64,000 bases of DNA from an uncultured Bacteroidales bacterium (lineage in GTDB: Bacteria; Bacteroidota; Bacteroidia; Bacteroidales; Muribaculaceae): the NCBI GenBank assembly GCA_965143025.1, contig CBCSTG010000006.1:24475-88474 (forward strand), written 5' to 3'. Under the pieces are notes generated by a model. It worked only from the letters and a program-made list of their open reading frames with translations, was not told the DNA's origin and did no database searches. A program made the translations under genes and the position numbers. Within the stretch, counting starts at the first letter, position 1. Each line of letters starts with the position of its first letter. Positions 21,357-45,371 of this stretch are shown in pieces.

Positions 21357-22370
21357 GTTATGTAATTATATAATGATTGATTGTATTAGTTCGCGGTAAG
21401 ATGCTGCAAAGTTAGCATCCGGGCCTTAACGCTCGCTTAAAACACGCTTAATTGCCGATAAATCGACGCTAAATCAAGCCCATTTACCACCGATTAATCA
21501 ATCTGTTAATCTTAAGTCTAAATTCTGCGGCGTGTGATTCGCCGCAAAAAAATATCCGGAGCACTGCCTCGGAGCGACGTCAGTCAGTCCGTGCATAAGA
21601 AGCCATCACACAAAATCGAACACACTCGAATATTATTAATAAATAAACATTTTTGATTAACCGCCTGCAATGAAAATATATGTTATCAAACATCCTCAAA
21701 TAGAGCGCGTAAAGTTTGGTCATATCATTAAAAAAACATAATTTTGTTATCGTCAAATCAACGATACTACATCCGCGACGAGACAGACATATAAAATTGG
21801 AAGCGTAATTTGTTATCCTGTTCACGCCGAATCCTGAGAAAATTCCCCGCAAAGAACAGAGGCCACAAAGTGCGCTCCCTCTTGGTAGGTATGGCTCAAA
21901 TTGTGCCCTGCTGCAAAGTAGCACAGACCATAATATCAGGAGTGTGAGCCGTACATTTTAGCCGTTGCTGTTCTTAGGCCATTCTCAGGAGCCTCGCGTG
22001 AATCAACTGCAAATGTTGGCTCGCGCTCTTCTTTTTTACATGTCTTTTTAATACCACCAATTCGCACACCGCCGCAGAGCCACCGGCAAAAAAAGAAAAG
22101 CTATGGCTCATATTATTGGAATCGTCGTTTTAATCATCTTTTATGGTTTAGGTCCGGGATGTTAATCGTGAGGGTAACCATCTTTCTTCCATTCATTCTC
22201 CTTGCGAAATTAATATCTACCAGCAATGCGCAGTCTTAAGACGCTTATCAGGTTGTGTCTGACGGGTATAGCAGCTTTTATATCTCGGTAAATTCTTGTG
22301 AGATAAACTCTACACTAATCTCCTAAAGTATAAACTCAATCCTCTGTAAATCCATCGTAAATTATTCTAT

Positions 22371-22862
22371 TTGCATCACATGAAATCACTTTTCGTTTTA
22401 ATTTTTATTTTAATGTATTCAGTGTCATTAAATGCTGAAACATTATTGAAAATCAATTTCAAGAATTCAGACCGAAATCCGGATATCTATATTCTTGAGA
22501 AACTTCCTAAAATCACTTTTGATAACGTGGGGAATGTTCTCTTCACATTGAATGGCAATGTTACATCTTATCTGCACTCTGATTTACAAAATTATGTAAT
22601 CGAAAATTTTCAATTTTCAACAATAGAAGATATAATTCCGGATTTATCTGATGAATCTCATGATTTTCTTATTGAAAAAGGTTACATAACCATCTGCAAG
22701 TCTTCCGTTAATGTCGATGTATTAATATATGATTTAATGGGACAAATTATATTTCGCGATACGGTATGCAAAGGCTCCTCACTATCAATACCATGCTCGA
22801 GTTTTAATAGAGGCATATATATTTTGTCACTTAACCACAAATCTTATAAATTCGTAATCTGA
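22371..22862 (+). CDS. Small secreted protein with T9SS C-terminal sorting domain
   Basis: N-terminal signal peptide and a C-terminal VLIYDLMGQIIF...GIYILSLNHKSYKFVI CTD-like sequence; AT-rich (about 30% GC). Confidence 0.55.
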   Translation: MHHMKSLFVLIFILMYSVSLNAETLLKINFKNSDRNPDIYILEKLPKITFDNVGNVLFTLNGNVTSYLHSDLQNYVIENFQFSTIEDIIPDLSDESHDFLIEKGYITICKSSVNVDVLIYDLMGQIIFRDTVCKGSSLSIPCSSFNRGIYILSLNHKSYKFVI

Positions 22863-25843
22863 TGAATCGATTCGCTATTATATTGCTATTCTTCGCAACT
22901 ACCTTTTCTATCTCTGCATCAATTAAACGGCTGGAAAACCCTTTATTTGTAAGGATGAATAATGTTGAAATGCCTCTGATAATGGATGCAACCCAAGTAG
23001 ACAGTATCACCTTTTCCTATATGAATCTTGATTCCGTTATCTGTTCAACTATTCAGAGTCAATTAATCTGGACTCCTGACACTACTTATATCATTCCGCT
23101 AAATGACCTCTCGGAAGTACAGTTTGAAACACCTTCAAATAATGTTCGTAATGATATTCAGGTTGTAGAAATAGATTCAGAAAGAATGAAATATATTCAT
23201 TCCTGCGATATTACGTTTTCGGATGACGGCGATTTTATCGGCAGGCCAACTATATATTTTTCAAATGATATGCCGGAAAATTTACGGCCTCGTCCTAATG
23301 AAATATGGGTATACAATGATTTTAACGAGAGATTTCCTTATGGTTTCTTAGGACGCCATTTATATAATTACGAGCCTCACAAGACCAGTATAAACTTAAA
23401 TTCTATCGTTTCGCCTTCAACCGTCCCTGATGGTTGTTTTTCATCCAAATTTGAAATATGTGATATATCTGATGCGTATGAAAACTATTATTCATCGTAT
23501 GAATTTACTCCTGAAATGCCGGCCCTATCTCCCGAGGAAATTTCAACATATAGCAGAAAGGACACTGTTGACATTCAACTACCATGGTATAAACTTGATG
23601 TTTCTCACGAATTAGAACTAAAAAAATGGAAAAACGCTCCTATAGACTTAAGTATAAATGGCGCAGTGGATTTCGAAGTAGGAACACGAGTCGGCATAAA
23701 AGTTATAACGAATAAATTGGTTGAAAATGGTAAAGATATAACATTTGTAGATATTACAGGTACTCATGATGTATCAGTCTCGGGTAACGTGTCACTGTCA
23801 GGAAGTATATCTAAAGACTTTCAAATATCACCGGATTTACAGGCCCGTATACCGGTTGCCCCATTAGTAGTAATGGGGTTGGGATTAGATATTGGCCTTG
23901 AATTAAGCGGGCAATTATCTTTTTGTTTTTCAGACGCTATTATTACGTCACACTATGGCGTTCATTTTGCAATAAATGGAGATGACAGACAATTAAAATC
24001 TTCGTTTAGACCGGAAATCCATTTAAACAAGCCCAAGGCCTACGGTGAAGGTGCTTTTTCTGTCGGGCCAAAGTTTAATATTTATATTGGCCTTCTAACC
24101 CGAAAATTAGCCTCTCTTGGCACCTCTTTAAATATTCAGGGAAGAGTATCTCTCAACGCCCCATTGTCATTGGATATGTGGAATAATTCACATTTAGACA
24201 CAAGACTATATTCCGCCCTGTCTGACCCCGAAAGCTTTAAGGTGGATTTAGTAGGCGGTATTGAAATAGTTTCAAAAGCCTTTGGAAATAAAAATGTGAT
24301 TAGCTCTTTAGATTTAATTAATATACCGATTTTAAGAAAACCAATTTTGCCTAAGTTTAGTGAAGTATCTGTTTTACGTAAAAACACATCTTTACTTGAG
24401 GTCAAAGCCATTGCTCAAAATTATAAATCTTTGGCAGCCCCGCTTTTTAATATGCCTGATTACATTGGTTTCAAATCTTTTACATGTGACAAACCGGAAT
24501 TAGCAGAATTCTCAACTAAGAATTTTTGTTCTAAAAGCAATGATTACGAATATACTTATATAGCTGATTTACCGAGTCATCCACAAGACAAAAGTTTTAT
24601 GATTTATCCATTTTATCAACCTTTCTTAAGTTTAGGAATTGATAAAATAGTCCTCTGTGAGCCGTTTGATCAAATATTAAATCTTAAGACTAATTCAAGG
24701 GGAAAATTCAAAGAGGCATACTTGGCTGTATATAATAAGCCTCATATCTATTATCAAACTACTAAATATAATTATAGTTATATGAATTTCCATTTAGTAT
24801 ATGATGTGAATTTCCCGGAATTCGATTTCACCCCATGTTTAGATGATGATACTGAGGAATGGGGCTGGTTTTACTTGGATAGCGGATATTCTGATGATGA
24901 TATACATCTTCGTCCCGATGAAGATGTTATTGAGCGCATATCTGAAATCGCCGCATACGATTTGGAGATGAATGATGATATGATGAAAGATGAAACTTAT
25001 GCTAACAGTGATCATTATACTTTCTACAATAAGAGCAAGAAACACATAATAAGGTCTAAGAAAGTAGTCGCCACTACAAGAGAATGTATAAACATCCAGT
25101 TTAAACGAAAGGATGGCATTTTTTCTGCGACATTTAATTCAGATGGGGTAATAGGATTCTATAAGAAAAACTTAGGCTCAACTAATAAATCTAAATATGA
25201 AATACTCTGGATTGACAGATGTCCATTAAGTTATCGAGAATTTCAACGAATATCATTTGCAAACCTGTCTGTCGTAAAATCTCAACCAGAAAATAGATAC
25301 CATGGTATTTACGACATTGATGCTGATGTCTTATTTGAAGGACAAATATGGAATTTCGTTGATCCTAATAATATTGATTTTGACTATGGGCCGTATTGTC
25401 TAAAACACTATCAAGAGGATCGTTATAACGTAGTCGGTTATAATTTTTCTGGTGAAGATGGGACACCTGAATGGTTTGACACTCATCTATTCCGCAATAT
25501 AGAAGATTATATGACGCTTGTCCCTAATAGATGTAATGAATATTTTAAAGCATGGAAAATGAAACCTGTCCACCATTTCGCCCTTAAGTCTTATGGCCTA
25601 TACAACTTAGATCCAAACGATTACCGCGGCTTCGGTATATACTCATGGTCTATGATTATAGCAGCTAACCAAAACTACGGGTCTAATATTTTAGCAAATC
25701 ATATATGGCATGAAACAGAAGTATTTAGAAATCCAATAACTGGAATTGTAACACTTAGAAAACTTCGAACATGTATTAGGCCCGTTGGTAAGCCGTTCGA
25801 CCCCCAAAAAGTAGGTTCTGACGATTGTTACATATATCATTGA
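22862..25843 (+). CDS. Large secreted hypothetical protein (993 aa), orphan
   Basis: Signal peptide MNRFAIILLFFATTFSISAS. The start overlaps the stop of the preceding gene (TGATG); about 33% GC; no domain recognised. Confidence 0.6.
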   Translation: MNRFAIILLFFATTFSISASIKRLENPLFVRMNNVEMPLIMDATQVDSITFSYMNLDSVICSTIQSQLIWTPDTTYIIPLNDLSEVQFETPSNNVRNDIQVVEIDSERMKYIHSCDITFSDDGDFIGRPTIYFSNDMPENLRPRPNEIWVYNDFNERFPYGFLGRHLYNYEPHKTSINLNSIVSPSTVPDGCFSSKFEICDISDAYENYYSSYEFTPEMPALSPEEISTYSRKDTVDIQLPWYKLDVSHELELKKWKNAPIDLSINGAVDFEVGTRVGIKVITNKLVENGKDITFVDITGTHDVSVSGNVSLSGSISKDFQISPDLQARIPVAPLVVMGLGLDIGLELSGQLSFCFSDAIITSHYGVHFAINGDDRQLKSSFRPEIHLNKPKAYGEGAFSVGPKFNIYIGLLTRKLASLGTSLNIQGRVSLNAPLSLDMWNNSHLDTRLYSALSDPESFKVDLVGGIEIVSKAFGNKNVISSLDLINIPILRKPILPKFSEVSVLRKNTSLLEVKAIAQNYKSLAAPLFNMPDYIGFKSFTCDKPELAEFSTKNFCSKSNDYEYTYIADLPSHPQDKSFMIYPFYQPFLSLGIDKIVLCEPFDQILNLKTNSRGKFKEAYLAVYNKPHIYYQTTKYNYSYMNFHLVYDVNFPEFDFTPCLDDDTEEWGWFYLDSGYSDDDIHLRPDEDVIERISEIAAYDLEMNDDMMKDETYANSDHYTFYNKSKKHIIRSKKVVATTRECINIQFKRKDGIFSATFNSDGVIGFYKKNLGSTNKSKYEILWIDRCPLSYREFQRISFANLSVVKSQPENRYHGIYDIDADVLFEGQIWNFVDPNNIDFDYGPYCLKHYQEDRYNVVGYNFSGEDGTPEWFDTHLFRNIEDYMTLVPNRCNEYFKAWKMKPVHHFALKSYGLYNLDPNDYRGFGIYSWSMIIAANQNYGSNILANHIWHETEVFRNPITGIVTLRKLRTCIRPVGKPFDPQKVGSDDCYIYH

Positions 25844-26047
25844 GTTTTAAAATTAATATTAAAAATAAGCCAACAACGTAGACTCCCAGATTTCTCCGGG
25901 AGTCAGTTGTTTGTGTCCGTCCTAAAGAGGCCGCCCTTTGCGCATAAACATCTCTGTAGAATACTTTAGAATATTTTGTAGTACAGTGGCTTTATTATAT
26001 GCATTTTTTGTAATTTTGGGGGCTTTAATCAGGAATCTATACATAAC

Positions 26048-42832: not shown

Positions 42833-42867
42833 AACCACACAAACGCGCCGTGTGGCGTCGAAAGAGC

Positions 42868-42927: not shown

Positions 42928-43791
42928 TTATGCGGCGTTGTCGGTCGTGAGGTCGGGTGTTGTGAACAGCATAATGTCAGTGTACCGGGCATTGTAGTTC
43001 ATCGACGCTTCAAACTCCCTCCTCTGACAACGGGCGAACGGGTCTCCGAGCGAAGGGTGGCGCCCCATCCACTCGCACAGTTCGACGATGCACGATTTCT
43101 CGGAAGTAAAATATATGAAGTTGTGGCCGGGAAGCACCGACAGGACATCGAGGTAATCGGCAAGTCGCCAATACATACGATATGTTCCGACATCAGTGGA
43201 AAGGTATGGCGGATCAACGAGGAACACGGCCCCCGGTGTGTCTTTGAATCGCTCGAACAGTTCCCGGTAATCACAGGACTCTATCTCAAGCCCGGCGAGA
43301 TAATCCGGGCAGGGAGCATAGTCGCTCTTACGGACATTGTTATACAGTGTCTCGGAGCGCATCTCGTCTATACTTAGTTTATACTTCATGGAGAACATCA
43401 GAGAAGACGAGATAGTGATAAAATCGATATAGCCGGTTTCCCGTTCCTCCTGCTCGAGCAGCCTGAATATCTGCTCACGGGATTCGCCGGTGATTGGCTT
43501 GTGTCGCTCGAAGCGGTCTGAGATAGGGCGTATAAGGGAGAGTAGCCGGTTGGTGCGCTCGATATTGTTGATGCGGTGTCGGTAGTTGTCGAAGTCGTTG
43601 TAGATTACTCTTGATTCCGGGTGGTAATGTTTGGTGATATGGGACAGTAAGCCGGAGCCGCCGAAAAGATCAACAAATACCGTGTCGGCCGGATATTGCT
43701 TTATGACTTCGATAAATTGTTTTGCAAACATCCTTTTTTGACCCACAAACGGAAGCGGAGCTGACAAATAAAGTCTCTTTGATTTGTTCAT
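42928..43791 (-). CDS. Dam-like (alpha-class, D12) N6-adenine DNA methyltransferase
   Basis: Motif I VDLFGGSG near the N-terminus and motif IV LVDPPYLS near residue 190 of 287. Confidence 0.75.
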   Translation of the reverse strand: MNKSKRLYLSAPLPFVGQKRMFAKQFIEVIKQYPADTVFVDLFGGSGLLSHITKHYHPESRVIYNDFDNYRHRINNIERTNRLLSLIRPISDRFERHKPITGESREQIFRLLEQEERETGYIDFITISSSLMFSMKYKLSIDEMRSETLYNNVRKSDYAPCPDYLAGLEIESCDYRELFERFKDTPGAVFLVDPPYLSTDVGTYRMYWRLADYLDVLSVLPGHNFIYFTSEKSCIVELCEWMGRHPSLGDPFARCQRREFEASMNYNARYTDIMLFTTPDLTTDNAA

Positions 43792-44432
43792 ACGTTTAGT
43801 TCAAATTTAACGGCGTCCTCTCCTGCAAGAAGACGTCGAGTATTATCGATATTGTTTTCATATATATGGACATTGCCAAGGAAAAGTGTTATGGATTTCA
43901 ACGGCAGATCTATCTGTCGTGCCATCAGATAGAGGTGATATATGTCGGCCGGCAACCCGAGATTTGCATCCGAGCTGCGCTGATAGGCACTAATGACGAG
44001 TTCACCCCGGTCTATCTGAAACTGGACGAGTGACAGACACGGTGCCTGATTTGTCTCGGCCTCGGTCGCACCAAGGAACAGGACATAATTTTTAGAGCTG
44101 CGGCGCTCGGCATTTATCCGGGCGATTAAAGGCGGCAATTTTTCAAAATAAGTTGGATAGCTATTGACAAGTATTGCGCCGCAGTAGTCCCACCAGTTGA
44201 TGCCTGCCTCTCGGTATTTTTCAACAGACCTTTCACCGCTCATGAAGAGCTTCAGTTCAGAGCGCAGCTTCTTTCGGGCGATGCCATGCCCTTCGAAAAT
44301 GTCGAGCAGGTCGGCCGGCGTAAGTGTGAGCTGCTCGTTTATTAGATAGATTATATCGCCTTTGCGATTAGACTGATGTTTCCCTGTGTCGAGAATCCGT
44401 CCGAGAATCTGATGATATTTGTTACGTGCCAT
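43788..44432 (-). CDS. Thymidylate-synthase-family enzyme, short form, with Asn-to-Asp specificity substitution (dCMP hydroxymethylase/methylase-like)
   Basis: Aligns to ThyA: NRKGD for NDRTGTGT, APCLSLVQFQ for APCHAFFQFY (catalytic Cys kept), AYQRSSDANLGLPADI for LYQRSCDVFLGLPFNI (Asp at the ThyA Asn177 position), GNVHIYENN for GDTHLYSNH. 214 aa; its stop overlaps the Dam start (ATGA). Confidence 0.7.
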   Translation of the reverse strand: MARNKYHQILGRILDTGKHQSNRKGDIIYLINEQLTLTPADLLDIFEGHGIARKKLRSELKLFMSGERSVEKYREAGINWWDYCGAILVNSYPTYFEKLPPLIARINAERRSSKNYVLFLGATEAETNQAPCLSLVQFQIDRGELVISAYQRSSDANLGLPADIYHLYLMARQIDLPLKSITLFLGNVHIYENNIDNTRRLLAGEDAVKFELNV

Positions 44433-44511
44433 AGATGAGATACATAGGTTTGCTGCAAAGGTAGAATGACACCTATGACAGAAGTGTTAATGCTATTTGA
44501 ATTAACCTGCA

Positions 44512-44745
44512 TTAAACGTGCAGTTCTTTTTTGAAACGTGCGATGATGTCATATGTCTTGCGGACAGATATGTTGTGACGCCCGGCACACTTTTCGACGG
44601 CATACGATGTCTTATAGCCCATTCGGATTAGAGTCGTGTAGTCAATATACATTTCAATGTATCTAATATCTGACAACCTTGCTCCGGCATCTTTGATTCT
44701 TGAAATCATCTCCCGGTTTAAATAGAGTATTTCAAATAATGTCAT
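44512..44745 (-). CDS. Small Mor/C-like putative transcription activator
   Basis: 77 aa with a C-terminal HTH-like GRHNISVRKTYDIIARF; first gene of the leftward operon with the TS-like and Dam-like genes. Confidence 0.35.
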   Translation of the reverse strand: MTLFEILYLNREMISRIKDAGARLSDIRYIEMYIDYTTLIRMGYKTSYAVEKCAGRHNISVRKTYDIIARFKKELHV

Positions 44746-44771: not shown

Positions 44772-44889
44772 CGTCTCACTTATAAAACACGCGCATCTGT
44801 GGCGCATAAAGAATCCGTATCGGGTCGAAAGGGCATAGTGCCCCCGGCTGACTCCGATACGGATTCATGTGTTTTTAGAAAGTGAGACG
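44772..44889. promoter_or_regulatory. Nested inverted-repeat structured region in a divergent intergenic gap
   Basis: Outer CGTCTCACTT / AAGTGAGACG (10 bp), inner GAATCCGTATCGG / CCGATACGGATTC (13 bp), innermost GGGCAtagtGCCC; also GGGGGC...GCCCCC at 44905-44928. Confidence 0.5.
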
Positions 44890-44981: not shown

Positions 44982-45371
44982 GTGAATGTGGTAATTTTGC
45001 AGTCTAACTACACTCCAATGAATAACGAAGAATTTAACAGAACACGTTTGGATATGGTGCTTGAAATGTTCGACAAGAGTTCTGCCGGAGCGATTGAAAA
45101 ATCGGTATTATTCTCCGTCTCACCGGGCGGCACATTACCACCCGATTATGACAAAGCCCTTCGGCATCTTGTGACTGAAGGCTGTCTTGAGGAGAATAAA
45201 CACGGCTTTGCAATAACTTATAAAGGACGGGCGATATTCCACGAAGGCGGCTTTGTCGGCAAGTACCGCAGAGAGGTGCGAGGGCGCAGACTGGAGCATA
45301 TCGGCATAATTACGGGGATTGTCTGCGGCGTTGCCGGTCTGATTCTCTCGATAATAGCACTCGTTAAGTAG
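44982..45371 (+). CDS. Hypothetical tail-anchored membrane protein
   Basis: 129 aa with a single C-terminal TM helix (IITGIVCGVAGLILSIIALV). Confidence 0.4.
   Translation: MNVVILQSNYTPMNNEEFNRTRLDMVLEMFDKSSAGAIEKSVLFSVSPGGTLPPDYDKALRHLVTEGCLEENKHGFAITYKGRAIFHEGGFVGKYRREVRGRRLEHIGIITGIVCGVAGLILSIIALVK

Follow-up and report, generated by a model that had tools for sequence, protein, structure and literature searches.

A compact thymidylate synthase homolog predicted to act on dCMP, linked to a Dam-class methyltransferase gene in hankyphage-like prophages of Bacteroidales

A 64,000-nucleotide stretch of DNA from an uncultured Bacteroidales bacterium of the Muribaculaceae (assembly GCA_965143025.1, contig CBCSTG010000006.1, positions 24,475 to 88,474; hereafter the window) carries a Mu-like prophage in which the gene of a compact thymidylate synthase (TS)-family enzyme lies beside genes for a Dam-class adenine methyltransferase and a small helix-turn-helix (HTH) protein. 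At the position where E. coli ThyA reads uracil through Asn177 the compact enzyme has an Asp, and we predict that its substrate is dCMP rather than dUMP. On balance we favor the view that the genes form a self-contained accessory cassette which would make C5-modified dCMP for the phage DNA, beside N6-methyladenine (m6A) of the Dam class, as an anti-restriction device. The three genes, which an initial annotation had described from the letters alone and which are present on the minus strand in the list of open reading frames (ORFs), are the following (lengths in amino acids, aa):

44512..44745, minus strand: small HTH protein gene, 77 aa, PHROG 17790, putative transcription regulator; an ORF, the first of the cassette
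43788..44432, minus strand: compact TS-family enzyme, 214 aa, with Asp163 equivalent to ThyA Asn177; predicted dCMP C5 one-carbon transferase (from family, motif and structure)
42928..43791, minus strand: divergent D12/Dam-class N6-adenine DNA methyltransferase, 287 aa, with FGGSG followed by DPPY (from Pfam, motifs and Foldseek)

Family membership and active site of the compact enzyme

The 214-aa protein matches the Pfam family Thymidylat_synt (PF00303) with an E-value of 8.9e-22 (77.9 bits, cutoff 24.3) and PHROG 160 with an E-value of 1.2e-30, and it falls far under the cutoff of every NCBIfam TS equivalog model, the best score being 59 bits against a cutoff of 327. When aligned to E. coli ThyA by phmmer, APCLSL is paired with APCHAF (Cys132 with C146), QRSSD with QRSCD, GLPADI with GLPFNI (Asp163 with N177) and HIY with HLY, and the same pairing was reproduced by MAFFT and by hhalign (probability 99.3, E-value 2e-20, 203 columns). 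The initial annotation had recognized a TS-family protein by its catalytic Cys (APCLSL, set against the ThyA PCH) and its RS-D and HIY motifs, on which Pfam and the three alignment methods agree; it had also read Asp at the Asn177 position and named a profile alignment as the test that could refute this, and hhalign places Asp, not Asn, at 177. An AlphaFold (AF2) model, built on a 12-sequence alignment of the subfamily, had a pLDDT of 92, and the top 50 Foldseek matches of this model were all ThyA at a TM-score of about 0.8.

The subfamily alignment (A1) reaches down to 31% identity, its relatives being 31-77% identical, and an exhaustive search of 1.84 billion cluster representatives returned only 815 proteins at E<=1e-3, with few full-length relatives. 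Invariant in A1, in E. coli numbering, are E58, W80, C146, R166, S167, D169, L172, G173, H207 and Y209 together with the Asp at N177; Cys132, Arg152, Ser153, Asp155, His189 and Tyr191 are among the residues of the window protein that are invariant there. Because Asp163 is invariant across this alignment, we read the Asp at N177 as a property of the family and no accident of alignment. The profile of the subfamily scores E. coli ThyA at 100 bits and relatives with Asp177, Leu143 and full tails at 118-133 bits, as compared with 38 bits for the enzyme of phage PaMx74, 33 for T4 gp42, 24 for RB69 gp48 and 23.5 for the PaMx11 dUMP hydroxymethylase (gp51). Set against the 264 aa of ThyA, the protein lacks some 14 residues behind the W80 helix and some 39 from its C-terminal end (hhalign). 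The initial annotation had described the enzyme as lacking the small-domain insertion of ThyA, like the phage dNMP hydroxymethylases; the protein is compact, but the likeness does not hold, the profile being far nearer ThyA and the Asp/Glu signature of hydroxymethylases being absent. One further TS homolog, P0001 (342 aa, on a 3.6-kb ENA contig), scores above the self-hit and has residues ~40-170 duplicated internally; an artefact of assembly or a tandem duplication is the probable cause.

Published work gives a rule for position 177 by which Asn reads dUMP and Asp reads dCMP (PMC8670742 section 11; PMC13326640 section 24). The change N177D turns TS to dCMP, and Asp is enriched among the TS genes of cytosine-modified viromes (PMC8670742 section 11). 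Mutagenesis and screening tie Asp177 to dCMP over dUMP (PMC8670742, PMC13326640, bioRxiv 10.1101/2024.12.05.627091), and when Asp-type TS homologs were assayed in vivo, 5-methyl-dCMP was obtained from five of seven (bioRxiv 10.1101/2024.12.05.627091). The part that the initial annotation gave to this Asp, a switch from dUMP to dCMP, has the backing of that mutagenesis and screening (PMC8670742, PMC13326640). Since Asp163 takes the place of the uracil-reading Asn, dCMP should be the substrate, and we consider this prediction well supported.

Residues close to the catalytic Cys bear upon the product. Position 143, three before the Cys, is Leu in methylating TS and an Asp or Glu that activates water in hydroxymethylases (PMC13326640; PMC6400193); in our reference table it is Asn in the PaMx74 TS, Asp in T4 gp42 and the PaMx11 dUMP hydroxymethylase and Glu in RB69 gp48. 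The window enzyme has Gln129 there, as do 11 of the 12 members of A1 (Gln), and the equivalent of His147 is Leu133 (Leu or Ile in the subfamily). In MetaGPA, no two residues were more strongly associated with cytosine modification than those at 147 and 177 (PMC8670742). The full subfamily signature can be written as [S/T]-Y-P ... S-K/R-N ... Q-x-P-C ... QRSxD ... D, with KFxLNV at the C-terminus. The equivalent of Asp169, Asp155, is kept and invariant in the subfamily, and D169N is the mark of flavin-dependent 5-hydroxy-dCMP synthases (PMC13326640 section 28). A synthase of the RB69 gp48 type was ruled out on this ground, and 5-hydroxy-dCMP chemistry appears unlikely; a classical hydroxymethylase of the T4 gp42 type was downgraded because Gln129 replaces the Asp/Glu signature. 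Inspection of these residues for hydroxymethylase versus methylase signatures, which the initial annotation had proposed, therefore gives a divided answer: a non-acidic position 143 together with Asp177 suits a methylase, but Gln fits neither published signature.

A 5-methyl product is slightly favored over 5-hydroxymethyl because the subfamily profile is nearest to methylating TS (100 bits for ThyA and 118-133 for the Asp177/Leu143 relatives, against 24-33 for the hydroxymethylases), because an amide stands three before the Cys, as does the Asn in the TS of the 5-methylcytosine (5mC) phage PaMx74, and because the D145N mutant of T4 dCMP hydroxymethylase is inactive and cannot make 5-hydroxymethyl-dCMP (PMC6400193). 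As judged from these residues, 5-methyl would have about an even chance of being the product, 5-hydroxymethyl a distinctly smaller one, and something else a smaller one still.

The dCMP methyltransferases of Xp12 and PaMx74, TS homologs that make 5-methyl-dCMP for full replacement of C by 5mC, share with the window enzyme the TS fold, Cys146, Asp177, D169 and the amide three before the Cys (Asn in PaMx74, Gln here). However, the subfamily profile finds the PaMx74 enzyme over its C-terminal half only; that enzyme has 298 aa and a long C-terminal tail which is missing here, and it is accompanied by adjacent deaminase, DHFR, hydrolase and phage polymerase genes, none of which adjoin the TS gene here. 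Moreover, Xp12 and PaMx74 are virulent, whereas the phage here is temperate and transposable. T4 gp42 has in common with the window enzyme the Asp specificity residue, the catalytic Cys, the compact size, the short C-terminus and, apparently, a hydroxyl residue beside the catalytic-loop Tyr (PMC6400193), but differs in the Asp/Glu that is Gln here, in Gln165 and Trp80, which in the window enzyme are TS-like, and in matching the subfamily profile over its C-terminal 82 columns only (probability 91); unlike in T4, no dCTPase, kinase or glucosyltransferase was found. Canonical ThyA (that of E. coli and the TS of Bacteroides fragilis phage B40-8) is the best overall match in sequence and structure, with the folate- and deoxyribose-binding residues conserved, and yet the window enzyme has Asp for N177, Leu for H147, Gln for L143 and Asn for R127 and is ~50 residues shorter. 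We regard the compact enzymes as a new, uncharacterized TS subfamily that is predicted to be directed at dCMP and is carried here by a phage both temperate and transposable.

The prophage, the methyltransferase and the regulatory sequences

Over the cassette, DNA identity to Bacteroides phage p00 (hankyphage, BK010646) and its relatives is 67-71%. The layout of the window is that of p00, with a repressor, MuA- and MuB-like genes and an ATPase, DUF3164, a minus-strand MuF/portal/terminase block and plus-strand capsid and tail genes, and the PHROG matches include transposase, transposition protein, portal, terminase and MuF. The host element is a hankyphage-like (Hankyvirus), Mu-like transposable prophage that begins near 33.7 kb and runs past the end of the window, its right ~12 kb lying outside. 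The genes annotated in p00 as 'thymidylate synthase' and 'DNA methyltransferase N6' are direct orthologs (81% identity for the TS and 60% for the methylase, with 45% for the small gene). In p00, however, the cassette is found at the right end of the genome, behind the reverse transcriptase of a diversity-generating retroelement (DGR), with ~95 nt between TS and methylase, whereas in the window it separates the early region from the MuF/portal/terminase block and the two genes overlap. For one hankyphage lysogen it was reported that all phage genes are transcribed upon derepression and that most of the proteins are detected (PMC12135933). Upstream of the prophage, positions 22001-26000 and 1-2000 of the window have 35-39% GC inside host DNA of otherwise 50-60% GC, and these segments may be another horizontally acquired island.

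Neither a dNMP kinase nor a dCTPase, DHFR, deaminase or glycosyltransferase was found when 20 ORFs of the early and packaging regions were scanned with Pfam and PHROG (the right ~12 kb being outside the window), and the annotation of the full p00 genome has none of these five either. These scans agree with the initial annotation, which had seen no cognate dNMP kinase or dCTPase.

The methylase matches the Pfam D12 class (PF02086) with an E-value of 3.8e-9 (37.1 bits, cutoff 22) and also PHROG 56, and FGGSG (residues 43-47) and DPPY (193-196) are invariant in the alignment of its family. Its AF2 model is of medium quality (pLDDT 68), with the target-recognition region modeled at low confidence, and has E. 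coli Dam as its top Foldseek match; searches of the PDB by sequence and by profile gave no match. Because Pfam, motifs and Foldseek concur, we assign the protein to the D12/Dam-class N6-adenine methyltransferases as a divergent member, so that the Dam-like, alpha-class methyltransferase of the initial annotation stands, with its divergence added. E. coli Dam and T4 Dam share with it PF02086 and the order of FxGxG and then DPPY, but identity to E. coli Dam, the best structural match, is only ~13% in the structural alignment.

Counts of GATC were rejected as a guide to the specificity of the methylase, since GATC is depleted in both host and prophage and is not diagnostic (69 observed in the window against 233 expected). 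CTAG has no occurrence in the window against ~78 expected from trinucleotide content, host and prophage parts being alike in this, and is nearly absent from related phages, with one occurrence in the 42.8-kb p00 genome (loci L002, L003, L005, L017, L036, L045 and L058 were also viewed). The depletion of both words is probably a general Bacteroidales trait or the result of widespread CTAG/GATC restriction.

The following sequence elements lie at the borders of the genes:

42834..42856, minus strand: terminator-like hairpin and T-run just 3' of the methyltransferase stop, closing the cassette (read in the sequence)
44788..44808, minus strand: terminator-like hairpin 5' of the small gene, parting the cassette from the MuF/portal/terminase block (read in the sequence)
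44507..44523, no strand assigned: perfect dyad CTGCA-N7-TGCAG that takes in the small gene's stop codon; possible operator or hairpin in the RNA (single match in the window)
44456..44463, minus strand: TACCTTTG, 23 nt 5' of the TS start codon, matching the Bacteroidetes -7 promoter consensus TAnnTTTG

The TS stop and the methylase start share an ATGA overlap (cgtATGAac, at 43791-43788), as the initial annotation had read. TAnnTTTG is the -7 promoter consensus of Bacteroidetes, known from Bacteroides promoters, and TACCTTTG, TATCTTTG or TATCTTTA is kept at the same distance before the TS gene in the otherwise divergent intergenic regions of related loci. Because of the ATGA coupling, the flanking terminator-like hairpins and this conserved box, the three genes look like one insulated transcription unit. 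The dyad, about 45-60 nt upstream of the conserved box, recurs at this site in almost every related locus. Its persistence in the window, where the reading frame and the C-terminal residues of the small protein differ (ELHV* as against DCxxxAV*), argues for constraint at the nucleotide level, and it is a plausible operator for the HTH protein.

The 77-aa protein matches PHROG 17790, a family of unknown function, with an E-value of 1.9e-21. The initial annotation had called its gene Mor-like and placed it before the other two: the position holds, but the similarity to Mor is weak. A Pfam scan gave no Mor (PF08765) match for the window protein at E<=1, and the Mor matches of seven of ten family members are sub-threshold (best E-value 1.3e-3) and level with generic HTH families such as HTH_28. 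The best PDB match is a sigma-4-like UPF0122 protein (E-value 0.024). We have therefore rejected the Mor identity and treat the protein as an HTH protein and putative regulator. Between the cassette and the MuF gene lies an ORF of 129 aa (44982-45371, plus strand) with a hydrophobic C-terminus and no Pfam match, which is also called as a gene on the related contig L092.

Linkage across loci and the weighing of readings

Linkage was counted in 80 viral loci from IMG/VR and in the best 80 genome loci from species-representative genomes, of which 352 among those scanned encode a close relative of the TS subfamily. The methylase adjoins the TS in 78 of the 80 IMG/VR loci, with the small gene upstream in all but two, and likewise in 78 of the 80 genome loci (66 with the methylase downstream and 12 upstream), where the small gene lies upstream of the TS in 74 of 77 testable cases. 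The order small gene-methylase-TS occurs in two IMG/VR loci (L058 and L060) and in 12 of the 80 genome loci (L093-L172), an internal rearrangement of the cassette with all three genes kept. The cassette was observed at two positions within the phage genome: it may adjoin MuF, as in the window, or follow the DGR reverse transcriptase at the right end, as in p00. The gap between TS and methylase ranges from a 4-nt overlap to ~110 nt. The coupling that the initial annotation saw in a single prophage is thus a tight linkage, although not an obligate one, as the loci without it discussed below demonstrate.

Across the genome loci the median identity is 82% for the TS, 76% for the portal, 67% each for MuF and the methylase and 42% for the small gene (ranges 80-91% for the TS, 64-84% for the portal, 45-95% for the methylase and 38-51% for the small gene). 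Of the genes in this region the TS is the best conserved, which we take as a sign of selection. The named hosts are all Bacteroidales except for a few short contigs binned into Firmicutes genomes. Close TS homologs stand in Firmicutes bins (Faecalibacterium, Oscillibacter, Waltera) at L127, L128, L143, L163 and L166, four of these five contigs being 2.4-6.6 kb long, and such contigs are most likely mis-binned Bacteroidales phage contigs and not true hosts.

Under the reading that we favor on balance, the HTH protein would, after derepression, probably control the Bacteroides-type promoter before the TS gene. The 214-aa enzyme would be a minimal TS-fold dimer which, to judge from the alignment, retains Cys132, Glu59, Trp81 and Asp155 for methylene-tetrahydrofolate, Arg152 and Ser153 for the phosphate and His189 and Tyr191 for the deoxyribose. 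Asp163 would set dCMP as the substrate, and with Cys132 attacking C6, C5 would gain a one-carbon unit to yield 5-methyl-dCMP (slightly favored) or 5-hydroxymethyl-dCMP. As no dNMP kinase, dCTPase or polymerase was found for the phage, it would have to rely on the kinases and replisome of the host to bring the modified nucleotide into its DNA during replication, and replacement would probably be partial. The co-transcribed Dam-class enzyme would add N6-methyladenine after replication, and the two marks together could blunt restriction in the many hosts that this phage group lysogenizes. The broader claim that the hankyphage group replaces some or even all of its cytosine by a form modified at C5, through a minimal TS-like enzyme with an undescribed signature ([S/T]-Y ... 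Q-x-P-C ... D) and with host kinases and replisome only, is one that we put forward tentatively and hold to be rather doubtful.

Several observations weigh against an anti-restriction cassette that marks cytosine. Within the enzyme, the phosphate-binding Arg R127 is an invariant Asn in the subfamily; a conserved Ser/Thr precedes the invariant loop Tyr ([S/T]91-Tyr92), as in hydroxymethylases, the alignment of this loop differing between MAFFT and hhalign; of the C-terminal tail, which in TS closes the active site for hydride transfer, there remains a conserved 11-residue tail with 'KFxLNV' (VKFELNV here); and an active site with Gln in place of Leu or Asp/Glu fits neither published product signature. 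The characterized pre-replicative cytosine-replacement phages all have some of dNMP kinase, dCTPase and DHFR, of which none is seen in the window or in the p00 annotation, and a phage that replicates within the chromosome of its host has no means of keeping a modified dNTP for itself. The hankyphage papers and a recent survey of gut temperate phages mention the methyltransferase only as a landmark or counter-defense gene and say nothing on TS specificity or modified bases.

Loci in which the partnership is broken also count against such a cassette. The TS and the small HTH gene occur without methylase in L045, L151 and L169. Locus L045 (IMGVR_UViG_3300021255_003695, 1345-2294) has the HTH-TS pair next to a tyrosine integrase, in a phage without a Mu-like appearance, and L151 (2519-3645) is from B. 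clarus; the HTH-TS pair seems to be the mobile core. A distant TS of the subfamily in L088, a low-GC phage, stands among recombination and replication genes, again without methylase, and the contigs of five other distant representatives (1.4-2.9 kb) are too short for context. Lastly, the lytic B. fragilis phage B40-8 (L173, FJ008913, 2505-3795) has a canonical 265-aa TS (Asn177, Leu143, His147) 11 nt after an unrelated Dam gene of PF05869. Adjacency of TS and methylase is therefore not specific to cytosine-type enzymes and is not in itself evidence of cytosine modification. The B40-8 enzyme also carries a point of the opposite kind: since it keeps Asn177, Asp is no quirk of Bacteroidales, and the comparison marks Asp177 in the hankyphage lineage as a derived, selected state.

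These loci bear on the possibility that TS and methylase are independent neighbors which co-travel in a variable 'moron' slot. Besides the loci with TS and no methylase (L045, L151, L169, L088) and the unrelated Dam family beside a canonical TS in B40-8, the variable gap, the invertible order and the much faster evolution of the methylase are what independent neighbors would leave, yet adjacency is kept in 78 of 80 genomes from at least nine host genera, through relocation and inversion of order, and in the lineage of the window the two genes are translationally coupled. We regard independence as a serious contender, somewhat short of an even chance. The cassette might instead serve the nucleotide pool, with 5-methyl-dCMP (or 5-hydroxymethyl-dCMP) as product, host dCMP deaminase turning 5-methyl-dCMP to dTMP, and little or no modified C in the DNA. 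No phage kinase or dCTPase was found that would push the product toward the triphosphate, for systems of 5mC phages it is reported that dTTP comes from the deamination of methylated cytosine nucleotides (bioRxiv 10.1101/2024.12.05.627091), and the distant member in L088 lies in a replication and recombination module like ordinary nucleotide-metabolism genes. However, no deaminase is linked to the TS in any locus examined, whereas 70% of the deaminases on cytosine-modified contigs lie within 3 kb of a TS gene (bioRxiv 10.1101/2024.12.05.627091); a canonical TS would do the job directly, and the fact that a DNA methylase and a dedicated regulator are linked to the gene almost everywhere suits DNA modification or anti-restriction better. 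A device of this kind is in our judgment unlikely.

It is improbable to a still greater degree that the enzyme carries out a different or new reaction, either on another acceptor (CMP, dCDP or dCTP) or with the methylene intermediate trapped by a nucleophile that is neither hydride nor water, giving an undescribed C5 adduct. A conserved signature that matches no methylase, hydroxymethylase or hydroxylase class would fit such chemistry, as would a phosphate site that differs (R127 an invariant Asn and the R21 position variable), and the TS family has recently yielded flavin-dependent 5-hydroxylation (PMC13326640). Yet the enzyme has every residue that C5 methylene transfer of the standard folate-dependent kind requires, the only linked candidate for transferring a further group is the DPPY methylase, and the argument is one from signature mismatch only. 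The public annotation of the homologs as 'thymidylate synthase' would make the gene an ordinary TS, an auxiliary metabolic gene that converts dUMP to dTMP and tolerates the Asp. The profile is indeed closest overall to E. coli ThyA, and lytic Bacteroides phages do carry a canonical TS beside a Dam gene; but Asp177 is invariant in the subfamily while the canonical Bacteroides-phage TS keeps Asn, His147 has become Leu or Ile and Leu143 Gln, with 147 and 177 the top cytosine-modification residues of MetaGPA (PMC8670742), all NCBIfam TS equivalog models score far below cutoff (59 against 327 bits), and the host already has ThyA. An ordinary TS thus has very little chance of being the right reading.

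Meaning for transposable phages of the gut

Prophages of the hankyphage type rank with the most widespread temperate phages that Bacteroidales of human and animal guts carry, and the group has been reported to lysogenize 52 species in 9 genera. What is unusual in the present case is the setting, a temperate phage which depends on the host replisome and in which no kinase or dCTPase was found, together with an active-site signature outside the characterized product classes. If the product only feeds dTMP synthesis, the cassette would be a modest curiosity of phage nucleotide metabolism. The Gln-for-Leu/Asp signature also provides a natural test case for what decides between methyl and hydroxymethyl in TS-family enzymes, and the product could even be a C5 adduct beyond these two.

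If, on the other hand, the phage DNA carries modified cytosine together with m6A, this would help to explain the unusually broad host range of the group, and it would alter the behavior of the phage DNA in restriction-based, bisulfite or enzymatic, and nanopore assays of gut viromes. Because such phages replicate embedded in the chromosome, induction might also mark the DNA of the host. Such a cassette would be the first case of pre-replicative base modification in a temperate, Mu-like transposable phage. With it, cytosine modification at the level of nucleotides would reach beyond virulent phages, which have replication machinery of their own, to a transposable prophage served by the machinery of its host.

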